DNA from: Candidatus Heimdallarchaeota archaeon | GTDB lineage: Archaea > Asgardarchaeota > Heimdallarchaeia > JABLTI01 | Assembly: GCA_030614005.1 (NCBI GenBank) | Contig: JAUWKS010000023.1 | Coordinates: forward strand, 17,414 to 49,413 | Length of the DNA: 32,000 bases | Direction of reading: 5' to 3' | Notes under the pieces: model-generated | Databases searched by the model: none | The model's input: the letters and a program-made list of their open reading frames with translations, nothing else | Told to the model about the DNA's origin: nothing | Made by a program: the position numbers and the translations under genes | Part shown: positions 2 through 29,762 of the stretch, piece by piece | How the letters are laid out: every line of letters begins with the position of its first letter | Numbering within the stretch: the stretch's first letter is position 1

Positions 2-2266
2 GGAGGCGGAGTAAAGGTTGGAATTCTTGATACCGGTATCCGATCAAGTCATGTTGATTTAATTGGTAGAGTTGGTAAAAAACAAAGTTTCGTTTTAACA
101 ACTTATGGATATGATTATTCTGATACATCCAATGATGATTTTGTAGGACATGGAACCCATGTTGCTGGTATAGTTGGTGGAGATGGAACAGGTAATTCTC
201 AAAGAATAGGTATTGCTCCTTCAGTAACATTTTATGCAGCAAAAATTGGTGATCATCAAGAAGATGGTGCACCCGCAACACTCGCTTCAATGGTTGCTGG
301 TGCAAACTGGCTTGCTGCACAAGGTGCTGATGTTATCAATATGAGTTTTGGAGCAGGTGGAGAACCAAACGTCAATATTCTAGAAGCTGCTATTGCAAAT
401 GTCGTTAATAATAAAGGTATCAAATTTGTTCATTCAAATGGCAACGAAGGAGAAAATGGTGTTTATTCCACAGATTCCCCAACTGCAGCTATTTCTGTAG
501 GTGCAGCAGATGACTCTTCGTTCCCCTTAGATATGGCTTATTTCTCATCTCAAGGTCCAAATGCTGACAATACAATGAAACCAGATTTAATTGCCCCTGG
601 TTATGATATTTTATCTTGCAGTCATCTTTCAGATAGTAGTTATGTTTTAAAAAGTGGAACTTCTATGTCCGCGCCACAAATTGCTGGTGCAGCTGCTTTA
701 TTGGTTGATGTCTGTAAAACAGAAGGTATCTCATACAATCCTGGAGCAATTAAAAGTGCTTTGATGAGTACATCCGATCCATTACCATCATCTACATTTG
801 ATTACCTAATTCAGGGTAGAGGTATGGCTAATGTTGGTGCTGCAGCAACTTTGTTAATAAATGCTGACCAAGAAGGCACTCTCCCAATCATTGGTGCTTT
901 AAATCCACTTATGAATCCAGTTTCAATTTATGCTGAATTGCTTCAAGGTCAAGTGATTGAACAATTTGTAACTTGTGTATCTCCTTTTAGAGATGACAAT
1001 TTAACATTGGAAGTCACAGGTGATGCCGCAGATTTATTAGTATTAGACGAAGTTACTAATTTCTATTCAGCAACTGCAAGAGTAACCTATACGATTCCGG
1101 TAGAAACTGCACCTGGTACATACGAAGGAGAATTTACTTTCAAATACAAAGGTACCGTATTGGATATTGTTGATATTGAAATTACTGTTGTTCCAAGTCA
1201 TGGTGAACATAGAATGCTTCTAAATTATCGAACTACCGACTGGATGATCGATCACATGTATGGTCAATATAAACACTTTACCGCTGATTTAATAGCAAGA
1301 GGATGGGTTATCAGTGAACAAAGTGTTGTCCTTACTGCTGATATACTAAGTGATTATGAAGCAGTCTGGTTCCCAGATCCATTCAGCATTCGTTTTAATG
1401 ATGCAATGGTAAGTTCTACCTATAATCCTCTATCTACAGCTGAATTAACAGTATTAGATAATTTTGTAACTGCTGGTGGAAGTGTTTTCATTGATTTCAA
1501 TGGAAATGCCTATGATGAAGAAAACTCAGTAATTTATGGAACAAATGTAACTCACGTCAATGAATTTACAGAAAATTATGGTATACATGTTAGAGATGAT
1601 ATTTGGGGTTCACCTTCAACAATCATTGTAAACCCAGTAGGCAGTCATGCTCTCACTGCTGGAGTTACAGGGGTAGATCATTATGGATGTACTTTAGAAA
1701 CATCTGGTGATGCTGTTCAAGTCACTGAAATTTCTGCTGGATCACAGTATTCCACTCTTGCATATTACCAAGCTTCTTCTGGTGGTAGAGTAATTGTTAT
1801 GTCAACAAACTTCGCACTAGATACAGATGGTTATAAAAACAAATACAGTGGAAGTGGTACACAGAACGATATTTTCGGTCGAAATCTTGTCCGATGGGCA
1901 ACAGCAGAACATCGAATTAAACAATACAATTACACTTTCACTGCTGGAACAATGAACATGACTTACGAATACATAGGCGGTCCTGGTGCAGACTTTGGTG
2001 GATATGTTATCACACCTGATGAAACCCGTCACAACCTTACTTGGGTAGAATTATCCAGTGGTATGTGGTCATTCACTTATAATTGTGAAACCCTTGGTAC
2101 CTATCATTTCTATCCTGAATGTGGAGAAACTGGTGTTGACGAATTTGATTACCTACTCTTTGAGTGCATTGAAACGTTTAAGAGTGGATTTACACCAATA
2201 ATTCTAATTTCAATTAGTATTTTAGGATTAGCCGGTAGTTATCTCATTTCAAGACGAAAGAAGTAA
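2..2266 (+). CDS. S8 (subtilisin) serine protease, 5'-truncated by the window edge, with Ig-like and GATase1/GIFT-like C-terminal domains and a C-terminal TM anchor; Site-1-protease-like architecture
   Basis: The frame is open from base 2, not only from 290. Catalytic Asp in ILDTG (29-31), His in HGTHVAG (149-151), oxyanion Asn in SNGNEG, Ser in GTSMSAP (662-664). C-terminal hydrophobic helix plus RRKK. Confidence 0.95.
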   Translation, partial: [754 protein letters not shown]

Positions 2267-2274
2267 ACTTTGAT

Positions 2275-2310
2275 GCGAAACGAGTAAGCTCGTATTTCGC
2301 TTTTCTTTCC
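2275..2310 (+). terminator. Hairpin plus T-tract terminator after the protease gene
   Basis: GCGAAA-CGAG-taag-CTCG-ta-TTTCGC at 2275-2300, followed by T-rich runs. Confidence 0.6.
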
Positions 2311-2457
2311 TTTTTTTTCTATTTTTTTATTCTTTTAATTAGAGAGGAGACCATTTGCCGCAATTGAAAGTTTTTTACATCAACCATAGGACTTAATAAA
2401 TAAGTTGTTAAAATAAATTTGACAAACATTTAACGTCATAATAACATTTGTAGAAAA

Positions 2458-2841
2458 ATGAATGATGGAGATACCAAGTTGACATTTGAATCAGAAGCTG
2501 CAAGATTACAGAATGATGGTGTAGTAGGAGCGCTCGCTTTAGTAGGGGCTGATGGTGCTGTCCATTGGCAAACACAGAATTGGCAAGTAGATGGACCATC
2601 CATGATTGATTCATGGACAAAAAAAGCGCCTTGGATTGTAATACAAGGAATAAAATATTCAACAATAGACATTACAAATAGTCGAATGATTTGTACTAAC
2701 ACCCAACAGCAAGGACATATAGTTATTGCAAAAACTCCATTCTGGCAAGGTTTCGTGATGGCGTGGTGTTCACCTGCTCATCAAGTTAGATCTGCCTACG
2801 TTGATATTGCTCGTTTAGCATCTGAAGTGAAACCTGGTTAA
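2458..2841 (+). CDS. Asgard-type profilin
   Basis: Motifs ALALVGADG-x4-QTQNWQV, IQGIKYS and TNTQQQGHIVIA parallel Lokiarchaeal profilin as recalled (AIAIIGKDG..TENWNV, IQGIKYM, TNITGKGHILIA). Length 127 aa. Confidence 0.9.
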   Translation: MNDGDTKLTFESEAARLQNDGVVGALALVGADGAVHWQTQNWQVDGPSMIDSWTKKAPWIVIQGIKYSTIDITNSRMICTNTQQQGHIVIAKTPFWQGFVMAWCSPAHQVRSAYVDIARLASEVKPG

Positions 2842-2907
2842 TCATAAAACCAACATTCACTTTTTACTTATTTTAAATAATATTAAAAACCTTTTTTTTC
2901 TTCTTTC

Positions 2908-5900
2908 TTAATTATCTTGTCCAAAAATATTTGGATTTGAGAATATTTCTGTGGCGGTAATATATACAGTTCCTTTCTCTACTACTTGGATTCTCGAAAG
3001 ATCAATACCTGTAACAATCATTTTTGAAAGATAATGCCCGTATTCTGCTAATGTTTGTATTTTTCTTCCTACAACGAGTGTTTTCAAAATATTATGTGGA
3101 CATAATGAATCTCGTAACTCTACTCCAATGCTTCCGATTACTGAGTCTGAAATATCTGTCATAATTTGTTTTTCCACAGTTGCATTTGTGAAAAGTCCAA
3201 CCATTTCTCGAGATAATTTTTCAGAGATGAGAAGAACAGGTTTATCTGATAATGAAATTCCCAAACAGGTTCCCAAATGTCGACCATTTGTTGTTCGTAC
3301 ACGTAAGCATTCAATTGGAATTACTTCAGAAGGATGGAAAACTCGTGCTGAATTTTTCAAAGTAACTTTGTTTCTCTTGATACTATTGATGGATCCACCT
3401 GAAATAAATACTCTATAAGAGTTGAGAATTTCATGGGGAAGTATCGGAAAACCTCTTTGTAATGAATAGTTAATCAATGTCTTTGGTTTGAGAGCTTCGC
3501 CTTCTGGAAGGCGCAACTGCTTAGCAATGAGATATTTCAATAACCAAAGTCGTTCTGTTGGATCATCTTCAGAGATATTTAATCTCTGAACTAAATAATT
3601 GACAATTGATTTATCTGGTTGCTTTGTATCTACTAGAAAAATTTTCCCCATAAGTGGATGTTTCACTGAAGCAATGATTGTACCAAATGAAATTCCATGA
3701 TGAAATAGACAATTTTTACCTATCGGATTATTATCTTCATCATCGAAATCTTTAGCTAACCATGGAGCAGTTCTGTATGGTTTTTGTGGTAAAATCTCGT
3801 CTAAATTACAAATAATTGATCCTCTTTTTATTCTTATCTTATTGATTGGTACTAAGCCGAGAATTTCTGGCTTTCCAATTTTATCAGAGCTAGGGTAACT
3901 GATATTTCTAAAATTAGCGAATTCTTGTAACTTTGAAATGTGTAAAGCTACATCTCTTTCTATCTGTAATGAATCAACTACTTCCTGAATAACAAAGATT
4001 TTTCGTTTTGTCGCTGATTCCAATAGCTCTTCCGTAACCCAAAGTGGTTTGATTTGATCAAATATTTTATCAATAATTACTTGATCTCCAATAGGCTCTG
4101 TTACCAATGTATACCCGAGTTTATTTTTATCATAAACAACTGCTTCTTGTAAGTAACCATAAAATTCGCGTGAACCATCATCTTTTAGATTAAATAGAGC
4201 TTTCCCTGTTAATTTCCATGCTTCAGTAGCTGCTTCCAATAATTTTTCTGAAATCATAGACGTTTTTTGTGGTTTTACCAGATTTTCTTCGATAATTTGG
4301 CGAGAAGGACTTTTTACTTCTCCAGTTTCTTGTGGAGTTTGTATTGGTGGTGAAGCTTCCTCTACTGAAGAAGCAGTTAAGGGCGTGGAACTTACATCTA
4401 CATCCGGAATTGATGGTATCTCTGCAATAGCATCTATAGGTTTACTTGCTGGAATTTCTGTCTCAGTGGTTTCTATTGCATCTAATTCATCTGGTTGCAA
4501 AGCATTGATTTCTTTTACTTCAGTTATTTCACCAAATGTTTCACCTATTTCTTGAGCTTCAATAATGCGTTCAGAATCAATTTTTGCAGGTTTTGTAATA
4601 TCAGAAGTTTTTCGTTTTTCTACTTCCTCTGCTAAACTTGAGAAGGTTACTTTTGTTATTACTTGTTTGCTTTGTGTTTTTTGCACTTCTTTTGGTTTTG
4701 GTAGTTCTTCAACTTCCTTAACTTCCTTTGAATCCAAAAGTTTAGTTAGAAATTCTTCAAAAGAGTTGAGAATAACTTTTTCGGTTAACTCGTTCATCCT
4801 TTTTGGTGAACCTTTAATATTATATTGTAAATTAAAATCTTCCATACCAACAATTTCTAAATCAATATCAGGAGTAATTGTTAATTGAGGTGTTTGAGGT
4901 ATGCGTAATTTTGCATCTATTTCTTCCGATTCAAAAGGTATTTCATCTTCTTCACTAGTATCTTCAATATCTAATGTATCAATTAAAAAGAAAGTATTTT
5001 CAAACTTTTCTTCCTCAATTGACAAAGTTTCAATGAGTGGATCAGTTGCTATTTCAGAAGCTGCAATTTTGCTTTCATCTGCCGAATGAGATGAATGGGC
5101 ACTTGCACTAGAATCAACTTCAATCCCAAATTGATCTTCAACAAATAATTCGTGTGATTCATCCATTTTTAAATGGTCTTTATCTAAACGACATAAACAA
5201 TTATTGTAATTTTTAATATCCTTAGTTAATAATTTAATATAATCAAGAAGCTCATTTATTGTTTGTTGAAATTCGCGTAACTTTTTGAAATCAGGAAGAG
5301 AACCGATTTTTGATGAGGAACGAATTTCTAATTGAGTTGCTTTAAGTGTTGCAAGTAACTCTGCTAAGGCATCACGATATTTATTTCTTAAATTAATTTC
5401 TTTCTTTAAATCTGTAGAGATAGTTGATAATTCAGCATCGTTTGCAACACCATGACCATAAGAGAACTGCAAGAAGTTTTGCAAAGTAAATTTAAGTAGA
5501 TAACCTTTTGATGGATTTCGTTTCAGATATTTCTCTCGAGCACCAAACCGATTTCTGGCTAATCTGAGATCATATTCTAATGTTTCTAGTTTTCTGGCAG
5601 CCGAATCTTGATTTACTTTTTTCTCAGCTAATAAAATTTTTATTTTGTGCATATCATGCTCTAATTTCTTAACATTCCTCTCTAATTCACTAATTTCTCT
5701 ACGAATTTTAAGATGTCTAAAGAATGTTCGAGGAACTTTATAGTTGGGTATTAAGTCTTCAATTGATATTTTGCCAATTAAACTATTAGCACTCAGAGGG
5801 ATTTCCTTTGTATCTATTGCTTCTCGTAATTCTTCGTCTGTTAGTGCAGTTGCTTGTTGAAATTGTTGTTCTAATACTTGTATTTTAGTTTCGAAAACTT

Positions 5901-5985
5901 CAGAATCAATTTTCTCAAGAGCGTATTGCTTTTCGATTTCCATTATATCTTTAAGAATTTTAATCCTGGAGTTCATATGTTTCAT
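2908..5985 (-). CDS. Large protein of unknown function: N-terminal CdvA-like coiled coil, acidic disordered linker, three tandem split PRC-barrel-like modules
   Basis: ORF of more than 1,000 codons. The likely start is ATG 5985 or 5976; the track start TTG 6096 adds a low-complexity N-rich leader. Heptad-rich N-terminus, E/S/T/P-rich middle and a three-fold C-terminal repeat. The domain names are inference. Confidence 0.6.
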   Translation of the reverse strand: MKHMNSRIKILKDIMEIEKQYALEKIDSEVFETKIQVLEQQFQQATALTDEELREAIDTKEIPLSANSLIGKISIEDLIPNYKVPRTFFRHLKIRREISELERNVKKLEHDMHKIKILLAEKKVNQDSAARKLETLEYDLRLARNRFGAREKYLKRNPSKGYLLKFTLQNFLQFSYGHGVANDAELSTISTDLKKEINLRNKYRDALAELLATLKATQLEIRSSSKIGSLPDFKKLREFQQTINELLDYIKLLTKDIKNYNNCLCRLDKDHLKMDESHELFVEDQFGIEVDSSASAHSSHSADESKIAASEIATDPLIETLSIEEEKFENTFFLIDTLDIEDTSEEDEIPFESEEIDAKLRIPQTPQLTITPDIDLEIVGMEDFNLQYNIKGSPKRMNELTEKVILNSFEEFLTKLLDSKEVKEVEELPKPKEVQKTQSKQVITKVTFSSLAEEVEKRKTSDITKPAKIDSERIIEAQEIGETFGEITEVKEINALQPDELDAIETTETEIPASKPIDAIAEIPSIPDVDVSSTPLTASSVEEASPPIQTPQETGEVKSPSRQIIEENLVKPQKTSMISEKLLEAATEAWKLTGKALFNLKDDGSREFYGYLQEAVVYDKNKLGYTLVTEPIGDQVIIDKIFDQIKPLWVTEELLESATKRKIFVIQEVVDSLQIERDVALHISKLQEFANFRNISYPSSDKIGKPEILGLVPINKIRIKRGSIICNLDEILPQKPYRTAPWLAKDFDDEDNNPIGKNCLFHHGISFGTIIASVKHPLMGKIFLVDTKQPDKSIVNYLVQRLNISEDDPTERLWLLKYLIAKQLRLPEGEALKPKTLINYSLQRGFPILPHEILNSYRVFISGGSINSIKRNKVTLKNSARVFHPSEVIPIECLRVRTTNGRHLGTCLGISLSDKPVLLISEKLSREMVGLFTNATVEKQIMTDISDSVIGSIGVELRDSLCPHNILKTLVVGRKIQTLAEYGHYLSKMIVTGIDLSRIQVVEKGTVYITATEIFSNPNIFGQDN

Positions 5986-6164
5986 TTCCCAGTGTCTTTT
6001 ATTATTATTATTATCTTGTTCTTTATGCTTTAATAAATCTAACATATTGAATTTAATGTTCACAGCATATTTACTATTATATGAGTCTTTCAGCAAGCTC
6101 AGAAAATAATTAAATAAGATAAAGGTTTTTTAATATCCCATATTAATTTAGTAACTCTTTTGGT

Positions 6165-26615: not shown

Positions 26616-29600
26616 CTAATCATCTGTTTGTTCTGGATCAATAACTTCCTCTTGTGCATCATCAGCAGATGAGGAACTTATATCAGGTAATGAGAATGTT
26701 TCAGTAGAACTCTCATCAACAATTTCAGGTTCGTGAGGAGGTAAAGATTGAGTTTCTTTCGCAACGGAAATTTCTTCCAAATCAGCTAGAAGTGTAGAAT
26801 ATTCTTCGTCAAGTTTAGTCAATTTCAGTTTTAAAGCTGCTTTGCGATCAGCAATAATTTTCTTTTTGAGACCTTTGATTGCAGAGTTTTTTACCGCAGA
26901 AGATTTTTCATCTCTGAAATGAGAAATTTCTTTTTTATAGAGCTGAATACTGTCTTCAAGATCTTCCTCTGAAGCTAACCAAATAGTATTACCAGAAAGA
27001 GCAATCTTGTAATCTTTGGAATGCTCAACAACTAGTTGCTTAATTTGTCCCTTGTTAAGTTTCTTGTCAAGGTATTGTGTGATTTCTTTGGCAGAAAGGC
27101 TAACCTTTCCTTTTGATCTCTGAGTTTCTATGTATCTGAACATACGTTGTTCGGGACGAGTATAACGATATGTTAACAAGAAAATAACTAAAATTGCTAT
27201 TAACAATATTGCACTACTAAGACCAATAGACAAAGCAAGAAGATTTCTGCGAGTAACAGGAGTGCTATCAGCATTAAGTGGATCAGAACCAGCATTGATT
27301 TCTTCAGCATCGCTAAAGGAATCACTGTCGGTATCATACTTGTTAGGATCTGTTCCATAAATCTTAACTTCGTCTCCATCTGATAAAGTATCGTTGTCAC
27401 TGTCAGCATCGAAAGGATCGGTATCTGCAGCATACTCTTCAAGATTAGTCAATCCATCTGTATCCGGATCTTCTGAAGCATCATCAACAAAGGGGTCAGT
27501 ACCAACATTATGTTCCCACAAATCATCCATTCCATCTCCGTCGGTATCTGCATTGTGAGGATTAGTGCCAATAGTATATTCTTCTACATTAGATAACCCA
27601 TCTCCGTCTGAATCGAGATTCCCGTCAGCAACAAGAGGATTGAATCCTTGGTCAACTTCGTAGCCATCTGGCATTCCATCTCCGTCGGTATCTGCAACCA
27701 TTGGATCAGTATGAAGGTTGTATTCTTCTAAATGAGTAAGGCCATCTGAATCGTTATCATCTCCAATGTCGTTTCTAAGAGGATTTGTACCCCAAGTTAC
27801 TTCCCAAAGATCACCTAATGAATCACCATCTGTATCAGTTGAATTAGCAAAAGTTGAATAGGTAATAATTTCATCATAATCATCCAAACCATCGCCATCC
27901 GAATCTGAATCGAGAGGATTACTATAATACAGTTTAACTTCATCTCCATCTCTTAATCCGTCTCCATCGGAGTCGCTGTTAAGTGGTTTGTTTGTTAAAA
28001 TGTATCCAGTAGTGTTTGCATAAGGATTTGTTGGCCAGTAGATGCCGTAAAGCTCTTCTCCATCTGTTAAGTCGTCAGCGTCTGTATCTGGGTTGTTAGG
28101 GTTAAGACTGAGATTATATTCATCGATATTAGAAACAGAGTCTCCATCTAGATCAGAAAGAGAATCGTCGAGTAAAGGATCAAGACCATATTTAACTTCA
28201 AAATCATCATCCATACCATCGATATCAGTATCAACAACAGTCGGATCAGTAAGATGGGTTAGATATTCATCTCCATCTGTTAAACCATCACTGTCGGTGT
28301 CAATATCTGTAGGATCAGTGAAGATATTTCCAGTCGTTATGTTGGCATTAGGGCTTGTTGGATAATACAAACCAAGAGTTTCATTTCCATCTAGTAAACC
28401 ATCGCTGTCGGTGTCGTTATTTAATGGATTTGTGATAAATCCGTCGAATCCAATAATAATTTCTTCTCCATCTTTCAAGAAGTCAGCATCTGTATCATTA
28501 TTATTTGGATCTGTTAAATAATCGAAAACTTCGTCACCATCAATTATCTGGTCATCGTCAGTATCGTCTTTAGTTTCATCTGTAAGATAAACATTAATTT
28601 CATCACCATCGTATAAGCGATCTCCATCAGAATCTAACTCAACAACTTTGAGACCATCTGCTCCATCTGCGTAATAACAGTATTCATCTAGAACGAATGT
28701 TCCAAGATTGTAAGATGTGCCATCATTTCCATCATCAAAAGTACCAACAATACCATCGATAACTGGTATACTTCTATCTGTAATATTGAAAATTTTTAAT
28801 CCATCATTCCGATATGTTACAAATGCTTTATTCCCTTCAAGTGAGACACTTGATGCATAAGATTCATTAACATATCTATATTCTGAAGGGCAAACTGGGT
28901 TTTGAGGAATCCAAACTGCTACAATAAAGAAACCATTTTGATCGGTGACATAAGCGTATCTTGCTGTATTATCAAAATCAACTTCTAAACTAAATGGATC
29001 ACTTAAATCTGAAGTAAAAGAACCAGTTAAACTTGGAGTGACTGGATTTGCTACGCTAATTATTTCCAAACCCCAATTTCTGTAAGTAATAAATGCGTAT
29101 TCTTCTCCTCCATCTTCTTTCTTAACAATATCTCGAGCATACTCACCGTTATAATAACCAGAACCAATTTTGGTTGGCGTAGTTGGTTCGACAAAAGAAA
29201 CCAATACAAGCCCTTGGTAACCACAAGCTAAGTACGCATAATGTTCATCAATATCAATAGCTAACGTTTGATTTGTGCCAATAAGAAAATTATTTTCTTG
29301 ACCAACAACATTTGGACTAGCTTTGTTACCTAAGTCTAAAATGACAATACCATTTATTCCATAAGCTAAATAAGCGAAATCATCTGCTAACACGAAATCG
29401 TAGCAGATAGCTGAAGCACTAACATAAAATCCTACAAGAGTAATATCGGATATATTACTGACATCTAAGATTCTGAATCCATTTGATCCATCTGCAACAA
29501 ATGCGAAATCGTCTACAACAATGACTTTGTGAACTGTTCCTGAATCGGACCAATTTCCTACTTTACTATAAATATGACTAAATCCACCTGTTACTTCAAA

Positions 29601-29762
29601 TTCAACAGAATCTTGAATTGTTTCTGCAACCGCAATTTCTATATTAAACGAGTCTTGATTATTTGCTGAGCCATCTGCAATTTGCTGTTGGAACATACAA
29701 GTTACAATAACAATTGCCATAATGGACTTCAGAATTTTTGTTTTATTTACACTTAAAGTCAT
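26616..29762 (-). CDS. Type I membrane protein: signal peptide, LVIVD beta-propeller, 18 TSP3-like DxDxDG Ca-binding repeats, TM helix, ~180-aa cytoplasmic domain
   Basis: Repeated AFVADGSNG/AYLAYGING/AYLACGYQG/AFVTYRNDG blades; 18 D-x-D-x-D-x4-[D/N/H]-x2-E units counted; TM LLALSIGLSSAILLIAILVIFLL followed by RYTR. Confidence 0.9.
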   Translation of the reverse strand: MTLSVNKTKILKSIMAIVIVTCMFQQQIADGSANNQDSFNIEIAVAETIQDSVEFEVTGGFSHIYSKVGNWSDSGTVHKVIVVDDFAFVADGSNGFRILDVSNISDITLVGFYVSASAICYDFVLADDFAYLAYGINGIVILDLGNKASPNVVGQENNFLIGTNQTLAIDIDEHYAYLACGYQGLVLVSFVEPTTPTKIGSGYYNGEYARDIVKKEDGGEEYAFITYRNWGLEIISVANPVTPSLTGSFTSDLSDPFSLEVDFDNTARYAYVTDQNGFFIVAVWIPQNPVCPSEYRYVNESYASSVSLEGNKAFVTYRNDGLKIFNITDRSIPVIDGIVGTFDDGNDGTSYNLGTFVLDEYCYYADGADGLKVVELDSDGDRLYDGDEINVYLTDETKDDTDDDQIIDGDEVFDYLTDPNNNDTDADFLKDGEEIIIGFDGFITNPLNNDTDSDGLLDGNETLGLYYPTSPNANITTGNIFTDPTDIDTDSDGLTDGDEYLTHLTDPTVVDTDIDGMDDDFEVKYGLDPLLDDSLSDLDGDSVSNIDEYNLSLNPNNPDTDADDLTDGEELYGIYWPTNPYANTTGYILTNKPLNSDSDGDGLRDGDEVKLYYSNPLDSDSDGDGLDDYDEIITYSTFANSTDTDGDSLGDLWEVTWGTNPLRNDIGDDNDSDGLTHLEEYNLHTDPMVADTDGDGMPDGYEVDQGFNPLVADGNLDSDGDGLSNVEEYTIGTNPHNADTDGDGMDDLWEHNVGTDPFVDDASEDPDTDGLTNLEEYAADTDPFDADSDNDTLSDGDEVKIYGTDPNKYDTDSDSFSDAEEINAGSDPLNADSTPVTRRNLLALSIGLSSAILLIAILVIFLLTYRYTRPEQRMFRYIETQRSKGKVSLSAKEITQYLDKKLNKGQIKQLVVEHSKDYKIALSGNTIWLASEEDLEDSIQLYKKEISHFRDEKSSAVKNSAIKGLKKKIIADRKAALKLKLTKLDEEYSTLLADLEEISVAKETQSLPPHEPEIVDESSTETFSLPDISSSSADDAQEEVIDPEQTDD
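27264..28634 (-). repeat. Intragenic array of 18 TSP3-like calcium-binding repeats
   Basis: Runs from DSDGDRLYDGDE to DTDSDSFSDAEE...DPLNADS. Confidence 0.85.

Follow-up and report, generated by a model that had tools for sequence, protein, structure and literature searches.

A phylum-wide family of Asgard archaeal subtilases with the body plan of the eukaryotic Site-1 protease

Does the protease that opens regulated intramembrane proteolysis in eukaryotes have a relative in archaea? The Site-1 protease (S1P; also MBTPS1 or SKI-1, in plants SBT6.1) is the gatekeeper of this process in the eukaryotic secretory pathway, and the question is raised by a subtilase gene at the very start of a stretch of 32,000 nucleotides from a Candidatus Heimdallarchaeota archaeon (contig JAUWKS010000023.1, positions 17414-49413), which we call the window. 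The original prediction, made from the sequence of the window, described an S8 catalytic triad followed by a beta-rich domain, an alpha/beta domain and a C-terminal transmembrane helix, and took the protein for a candidate prokaryotic ancestor of S1P. All of these elements are present, and an immunoglobulin (Ig)-like domain at residues 866-950 is there in addition. The beta-rich domain is called here the P-like domain and the alpha/beta domain, which is class-I glutamine amidotransferase (GATase)-like, the GIFT domain. Judged from sequence profiles and structure models, the core of the protein from S8 to GIFT is homologous to eukaryotic S1P and is folded in the same relative arrangement. The Asgard family to which it belongs represents the S1P body plan in a new, prokaryotic form.

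Likeness to S1P along the whole length

A profile (A5) that was built from 76 diverse relatives and runs from the helix of the catalytic serine to the end of the ectodomain was searched with HMMER against 177,635 PDB sequences. Its best match was human S1P (8UW8/8UWC), positions 1-383 aligning with S1P 417-852 in a single stretch with 80.9 bits (E 6.7e-22). The next matches were TPP2 with 59 bits, at the S8 end only, IFT52 with 55 bits and Vpr with 50 bits. The alignment with S1P crosses both domain junctions collinearly, and the linker that joins the P-like domain to GIFT has a gap of one residue. By this measure the sequence similarity to S1P is far beyond chance. As had been predicted, it extends from the helix of the catalytic serine into the non-catalytic GIFT domain. 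The four segments of human S1P that had been quoted in support of the prediction proved genuine and in the claimed register, all of them appearing in the A5 alignment opposite the same family columns. S1P surfaced in the PDB only once the profile had been widened to 76 diverse relatives; searches of the PDB with a single C-terminal sequence or with a narrow family gave antibody noise, or IFT52 alone without S1P at E <= 10.

The comparison of an AlphaFold2 model with S1P structures, which had been suggested as a check, bore the prediction out, since human S1P was the top full-length match in the PDB. The model of the full-length protein was made with no templates (pLDDT 85.1, pTM 0.77). Foldseek placed human S1P first (9CSD_A, E 8.2e-36; 8UW8_A, E 2.8e-34; about 757 columns each, TM-score by target 0.63), and Vpr followed nine orders of magnitude behind with E 1.5e-26 over 463 columns. 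With VIA-align, 590 residues were superposed on 8UW8 at 3.7 Å, model residues 207-864 on chain residues 190-873, with about 20% identity, and the P-like domain falls inside this superposition. The superposition reached 268 residues for ordinary subtilisins and 330-392 for Tk-SP and Vpr, and no other chain among the matches listed exceeded 392. In the ESM Atlas the top match was a eukaryotic S1P cluster (TM-scores 0.59/0.57, 676 residues aligned, query 41-866); the remaining rows had at most 517 residues aligned and held no GIFT family. A look-up in the Atlas with a language model ranked a plant MBTPS1 cluster second at 0.83, which is under the level of 0.9 at which matches were counted and serves as a lead only.

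The domain map of human S1P (D218/H249/N338/S414, P-like domain 479-616, GIFT domain 617-998, transmembrane helix and short tail; PMC11231238) matches that of the Asgard protease almost position for position, with the catalytic residues and the domain borders within about 20-40 residues of one another. The order common to the Asgard protease and to S1P (8UW8, 8UWC, 9CSD) is a signal peptide, a long pro-region, the S8 domain, the P-like domain, the GIFT domain, a single C-terminal transmembrane helix and a short basic tail. The two differ in several respects. The Asgard protease has the extra Ig-like domain before the transmembrane helix, for which there is no resolved counterpart in the S1P structures, and the GIFT domain of human S1P carries long insertions. 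S1P faces the Golgi lumen and the Asgard protease is predicted to face the cell exterior, and the latter is without a known SPRING-like partner or a known membrane transcription-factor substrate.

Single domains and the origin of the body plan

We think it probable, from the profiles and the models, that the fused body plan of S8 domain, P-like domain, GIFT domain and transmembrane anchor arose only once and is common to the Asgard family and eukaryotic S1P by descent. The most serious alternative, which we consider unlikely, is convergence: a pyrolysin/Vpr-type subtilase with its beta-sandwich would have been fused to a generic GIFT domain and a membrane anchor twice, once in Asgard archaea and once on the eukaryotic stem, so that the two proteins would share a layout and not a descent. 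Convergence has to be weighed domain by domain, because its case is that the domains taken singly are nearer to other proteins than to S1P.

The catalytic domain is a clear member of peptidase family S8. It matches Pfam PF00082 with E 4e-46 (158 bits against a cut-off of 21.8 bits), D238, H278, N376 and S449 are invariant in an alignment of 38 family members (A1), and VIA-align superposes the domain on subtilisin BPN' over 268 residues with a root-mean-square deviation of 1.7 Å and a Z score of about 40. No NCBIfam model was matched above its cut-off, the best being mycosin with 97 bits against 279. With a profile of the S8 domain alone Tk-SP scored 212 bits, Vpr 184, BPN' 168 and S1P 152, and human S1P ranks about 34th in the PDB for S8 profiles; with the full-length profile S1P was the sole eukaryotic chain among the 60 best matches. 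The two top scorers, Tk-SP of Thermococcus (3AFG/9UES) and Bacillus Vpr (8JMW), also align in the beta-sandwich that follows S8 (330-392 residues, Z 42-44; in Vpr, profile positions 1-178), so the P-like domain is not exclusive to S1P. However, Tk-SP and Vpr have neither a GIFT domain nor a C-terminal membrane anchor and are secreted, soluble or fibril-forming.

The GIFT domain behaves similarly when it is taken alone. Folded by itself it gave a pLDDT of 96, and its significant fold and profile matches to IFT52 place it in the GIFT superfamily. In the family profiles its match in S1P covers residues 602-852. VIA-align ranked mouse IFT52 first (Z 23.4, 203 residues, 2.4 Å), followed by S1P (Z 19.6, S1P 614-874), OST48 (Z 19.5) and bacterial GATase-like proteins (Z 16-17); Foldseek on the GIFT domain alone gave the same ranking, with IFT52 ahead of S1P. 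A profile of the GIFT domain (A4) likewise scored IFT52 at 56.6 bits (E 2e-14) and S1P at 40.1 bits (E 2e-9). In the ESM Atlas the neighbours of the GIFT model were DUF4350, GldG and IFT52 clusters of bacteria, archaea and eukaryotes with TM-scores of about 0.8, and S1P was not in the top rows. The GIFT domain is also mobile: haloarchaea have it fused to a thermonuclease, and Bacteroidota to glycoside hydrolases. The original prediction expected the C-terminal domain to be closer to S1P than to generic GIFT domains and named the failure of this as grounds for giving the prediction up. At the level of the isolated domain the expectation fails, since IFT52 is no worse a match for GIFT alone than S1P is; the exception is the first half of the domain.

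Nor were the Pfam models of the MBTPS1 domains reached, another check that had been proposed. MBTPS1_4th (PF23090) scored 12 bits against a cut-off of 27 bits; the best of the 38 relatives had E 5e-4, and 9/38 matched at all. The Pfam families IFT52_GIFT and ABC_transp_aux matched more of the relatives than MBTPS1_4th, all below cut-off, and residues 516-632 matched neither MBTPS1_3rd (PF23094) nor any other Pfam family. As a separate observation, the best matches of the Asgard GIFT domain among solved structures are the three eukaryotic GIFT families, IFT52, S1P and OST48, with the bacterial GATase-like proteins after them. This ranking may bear on the source of the GIFT modules of IFT52 and OST48, which may have come from a pool that also includes the Asgard module.

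The preference for S1P appears when the domains are taken together. A profile of the junction (A6; 85 positions that run from the final beta-sandwich strand through the linker to halfway into GIFT, with the pattern DW..DH...GY.VE...Y..L..D) matched only S1P in the PDB, with E 8e-7, and no IFT52, OST48 or other GATase-like chain at E <= 10. IFT52, OST48/Wbp1 and GldG/DUF4350, which are the best matches for GIFT alone, are not fused to a protease, and in the first ~65 GIFT positions they have no detectable sequence similarity to the Asgard family whereas S1P has. Convergence would also have to account for a profile alignment that runs unbroken over both junctions, for the joint superposition of the three domains, and for the lack of any second cluster with S8 and GIFT in the Atlas search. 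The S1P-specific junction profile, the single-residue gap in the linker and the joint superposition of three domains speak for one fusion event rather than for convergence, but they do not prove it.

The results on single domains and on the Pfam models weigh against a common origin of the body plan, and there are further points on the same side, some of which concern the enzyme's proposed activation and function. The inter-domain geometry is a prediction from an alignment of 38 sequences. The pro-region of S1P combines a single folded A-domain with an unstructured B segment, whereas two folded units are predicted in the Asgard protease, and a profile of the Asgard pro-region found nothing in the PDB or Pfam and no sequence match to the S1P A-domain or I9. 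In the family alignment there is no conserved basic RxxL/RxLx motif at the junction of pro-region and mature enzyme, while S1P holds a P4 arginine in an acidic pocket. The function of the Asgard protease, finally, is deduced from its anatomy alone. A single origin of the fused body plan is in our judgement still the better reading. That the Asgard family is the vertical ancestor of eukaryotic S1P is a further step, which the same profiles and models make possible but for which we have only tentative confidence. The body plan, the top full-length structural match and the collinear sequence speak for the ancestry that had been predicted, but the GIFT and S8 domains alone are not specific to S1P and the MBTPS1 models of Pfam stay below cut-off.

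Distribution, variants and putative function

The C-terminal module is a multi-copy family throughout the Asgard archaea. It was found at E <= 1e-10 in 294 of 300 Asgard genomes, which include 90/90 of high quality, 70/70 genera and all 30 sampled families, mostly with 2-6 matches per genome, and the subfamilies are only 20-25% identical to one another. When a narrower C-terminal profile was run exhaustively with HMMER against 1.84 billion representatives, 430 matches had E <= 0.001, of which 159 reached E <= 1e-10. The relatives that carry a name are almost all Asgard (Heimdall, Gerd, Thor, Odin, Njord), plus one metagenome-assembled genome labelled Bathyarchaeia, and one of the most distant S8-type matches is 100% identical to an Asgard-phylum genome. 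Human S1P was invisible to this narrow profile, and therefore an equally distant bacterial family could have been missed; the fold search in the ESM Atlas, which covers clusters of at least 50 members, is alone in speaking against such a family. A word-indexed search of a set of 5.8 billion proteins returned Asgard relatives, haloarchaeal proteins with DUF4350 and a nuclease, and Vpr-like enzymes, but no eukaryotic S1P, which reflects a limit of the index and not absence. A scan of genome contigs with a narrow peptide pattern found 12 loci, 11 labelled Heimdallarchaeota and 1 Promethearchaeati, a count that says nothing of the wider distribution. One protein, P0184, was considered as an S8-GIFT protein from outside the Asgard archaea and was rejected: it has only ThuA/DUF4350, is not a subtilase and was not found in 61 Asgard genomes.

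Two further relatives lie in the same genome on other contigs, C69 and C85. The paralogue on C69 has 1005 residues and 49-51% identity by tblastn. In the 1005-residue paralogue (L002:814-3831) a stretch rich in threonine and proline, TPPDPTTPPTSTPTITTTPTT, lies between the Ig-like domain and the transmembrane helix; it resembles a glycosylated stalk, and the copy in the window does not have it. The form on C85 (C85:16149-18035; L003:1297-3501, minus strand) has 734 residues and 30-34% identity. It has an N-terminal anchor right before S8, lacks the pro-region and the C-terminal transmembrane helix, and keeps the beta-sandwich, the GIFT domain and the triad motifs; from its sequence we take it to be the same module with a type-II anchor. 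Family variants of ~660 residues have neither anchor nor stalk. At the other end of the range, Odin-type variants of ~1250 residues (P0159, P0167, P0183, P0186; the P0167 cluster is named Odinarchaeia) have, beyond the transmembrane helix, a zinc ribbon (Pfam Zn_Ribbon_1/DZR) that is predicted to be cytoplasmic, and an acidic tail. In these forms a protease on the outside would be wired to a nucleic-acid- or protein-binding finger on the inside.

What the protease in the window does can be proposed from its layout and its model. The gene product is apparently a catalytically competent, membrane-anchored subtilase on the exterior of a Heimdall-type Asgard cell, and the protein reads as a type-I membrane protein with its protease part outside; the transmembrane helix and the basic tail recur across the protease family. 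A Sec signal peptide would export the protein, the pro-region would act as a chaperone for folding and would then be removed by autoprocessing, and the C-terminal helix would keep the mature enzyme tethered. The P-like beta-sandwich and the GIFT domain would brace the S8 domain and the Ig-like stalk would raise it. Such an enzyme may cleave proteins at the cell surface, in the maturation or shedding of surface proteins or in the scavenging of peptides. A self-activating surface subtilase is the safest mechanistic reading of the predicted anatomy.

In the AlphaFold2 model the pro-region, which would act in this activation, consists of two predicted beta-alpha-beta-beta-alpha-beta units at 67-128 and 131-187. 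The alignments with pro-subtilisin E and pro-Tk-subtilisin begin at model residue 128-130 and so lay the second of these units over the classical propeptide. At the junction to the mature enzyme DTTD(I/V)x(Y/L/F) is conserved, and the linker that follows is variable. Near the start of the pro-region, at residues 42-58 (L001:940-990), there is a nearly invariant D-x-N-G-D-K-I-D-D-K-L (D47, N49, D51, K52, I53, D55), which recalls a calcium-binding loop.

The original prediction went further and made the protein the starter of regulated intramembrane proteolysis. On that proposal it would be a functional site-1 protease, which cleaves the outer part of a membrane regulator and so licenses an M50 site-2 protease, in an archaeal cascade ancestral to SREBP/ATF6 processing. 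Its body plan and topology are as in S1P, and the zinc ribbons after the transmembrane helix in the Odin-type relatives suggest some transmembrane coupling in that branch. The search for M50 proteases that had been proposed did find three M50 genes in the genome, but M50 is also present in 14/14 control genomes, so its presence says nothing, and we rejected it as evidence of such a cascade. Near the site where autoprocessing is presumed to occur, the Asgard family shows no conserved basic motif of the RxxL or P4-Arg type. The genes near it include no candidate membrane-regulator substrate; they are housekeeping or cytoskeletal genes, namely those for ThiN, profilin, a PRC protein and a class-I tRNA synthetase. 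The 2-6 module matches per genome and the soluble short forms fit a broader role. Nothing found here ties the gene to regulated intramembrane proteolysis, and we regard a functional site-1 role as very improbable.

The least probable proposal, to which we give almost no weight, is that Asgard archaea acquired the S1P gene from a eukaryote: a broad subtilase phylogeny of 2019 proposed that the S1P group, there called SBT7, originated within eukaryotes (PMC6713707), but the spread of the module through all sampled families, the divergence between subfamilies and an S8 domain whose similarity to prokaryotic subtilases far exceeds that to S1P together point to an old residence in Asgard archaea. 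A full-text literature search that paired Asgard with site-1 protease or MBTPS1 returned no relevant paper, and the family does not appear in the main text of a recent list, drawn up from structures, of homologues shared by Asgard archaea and eukaryotes. The presence of the fused body plan in a family that spans the Asgard phylum makes the origin of S1P directly testable. If vertical ancestry were to hold, the family would be an unlisted eukaryotic signature protein, by which a protease of the secretory pathway would join the eukaryote-like proteins of Asgard archaea, and the archaeal host would already have carried on its surface the body plan of the Golgi protease with which SREBP/ATF6-type signalling begins. 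If ancestry fails, what is left is an ordinary, uncharacterised family of archaeal surface subtilases.

Gene layout and genomic neighbourhood

The reading frame of the protease is open from the first bases of the window and the 5' end of the gene lies outside it. The part in the window (2..2266) is the last 754 codons of an open reading frame of 982 codons (L001:817-3765), whose ATG is 684 nucleotides upstream of window base 1; residue 229 of the protein corresponds to window nucleotide 2. The features are collected in Table 1. The Ig-like domain had no match in Pfam, but positions 347-402 of a family profile (A3) match filamin repeats with E 6.5e-5.

Table 1. Features of the protease and the adjacent profilin-like gene (positions in the window unless marked L001)
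Feature	Residues	Position	Strand	Basis or remark
Signal peptide / hydrophobic N-terminal helix (predicted)	1-26	upstream of window (L001:817-1500)	+	sequence and model
Pro-region (predicted)	about 27-207	upstream of window (L001:817-1500)	+	~200 residues
Low-confidence linker	201-207			AlphaFold2 model
S8 (subtilase) catalytic domain	229-515	2..862	+	Pfam PF00082; first residues of the mature enzyme upstream of window
Catalytic Asp (GILDTGI)	238	29..31	+	invariant in alignment A1
Catalytic His (GHGTHV)	278	149..151	+	invariant in alignment A1
Oxyanion-hole Asn (NGNEG)	376	443..445	+	invariant in alignment A1
Catalytic Ser (SGTSMSAP)	449	662..664	+	invariant in alignment A1
P-like beta-sandwich, packed on S8	516-632	863..1213	+	all-beta in AlphaFold2 model; collinear with S1P about 480-620
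GIFT (class-I GATase-like) alpha/beta domain	633-865	1214..1912	+	fold and profile matches
Extra Ig/filamin-like beta-sandwich, between GIFT and membrane	866-950	1913..2167	+	seven or eight strands in AlphaFold2 model
C-terminal transmembrane helix and short basic cytoplasmic tail SRRKK (predicted)	helix about 958-977	2180..2263	+	sequence; model helix 959-981
Stop codon TAA		2264-2266	+	
Profilin-like gene		2458..2841	+	Pfam Profilin E 2.8e-4, 21.4 bits, below 25-bit cut-off

ThiN lies upstream of the protease gene and profilin downstream, and a giant gene of ~1060 codons for a PRC-barrel/coiled-coil protein converges on profilin. The order protease, profilin and convergent PRC gene (window 2..6096) is kept in seven other Heimdall loci (L011-L017), where the proteases are 46-83% and the profilins 74-96% identical, while three loci of the paralogue type (L002, L009, L010) have no profilin. 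The position of the protease beside profilin, to which the original prediction drew attention, is thus real and conserved in Heimdall genomes, but it is conserved synteny within one class and implies no shared function. Just past the stop codon of the protease (window 2267..2330) there is an inverted repeat, GCGAAACGAG...CTCGTATTTCGC, followed by T-runs. Since this hairpin is terminator-like, profilin is probably transcribed on its own. Farther along the window, at 26616..29762 on the minus strand, a gene codes for a protein of 1048 residues with LVIVD repeats and five bacterial thrombospondin type-3 repeats, which from its sequence is probably a large calcium-binding surface protein.

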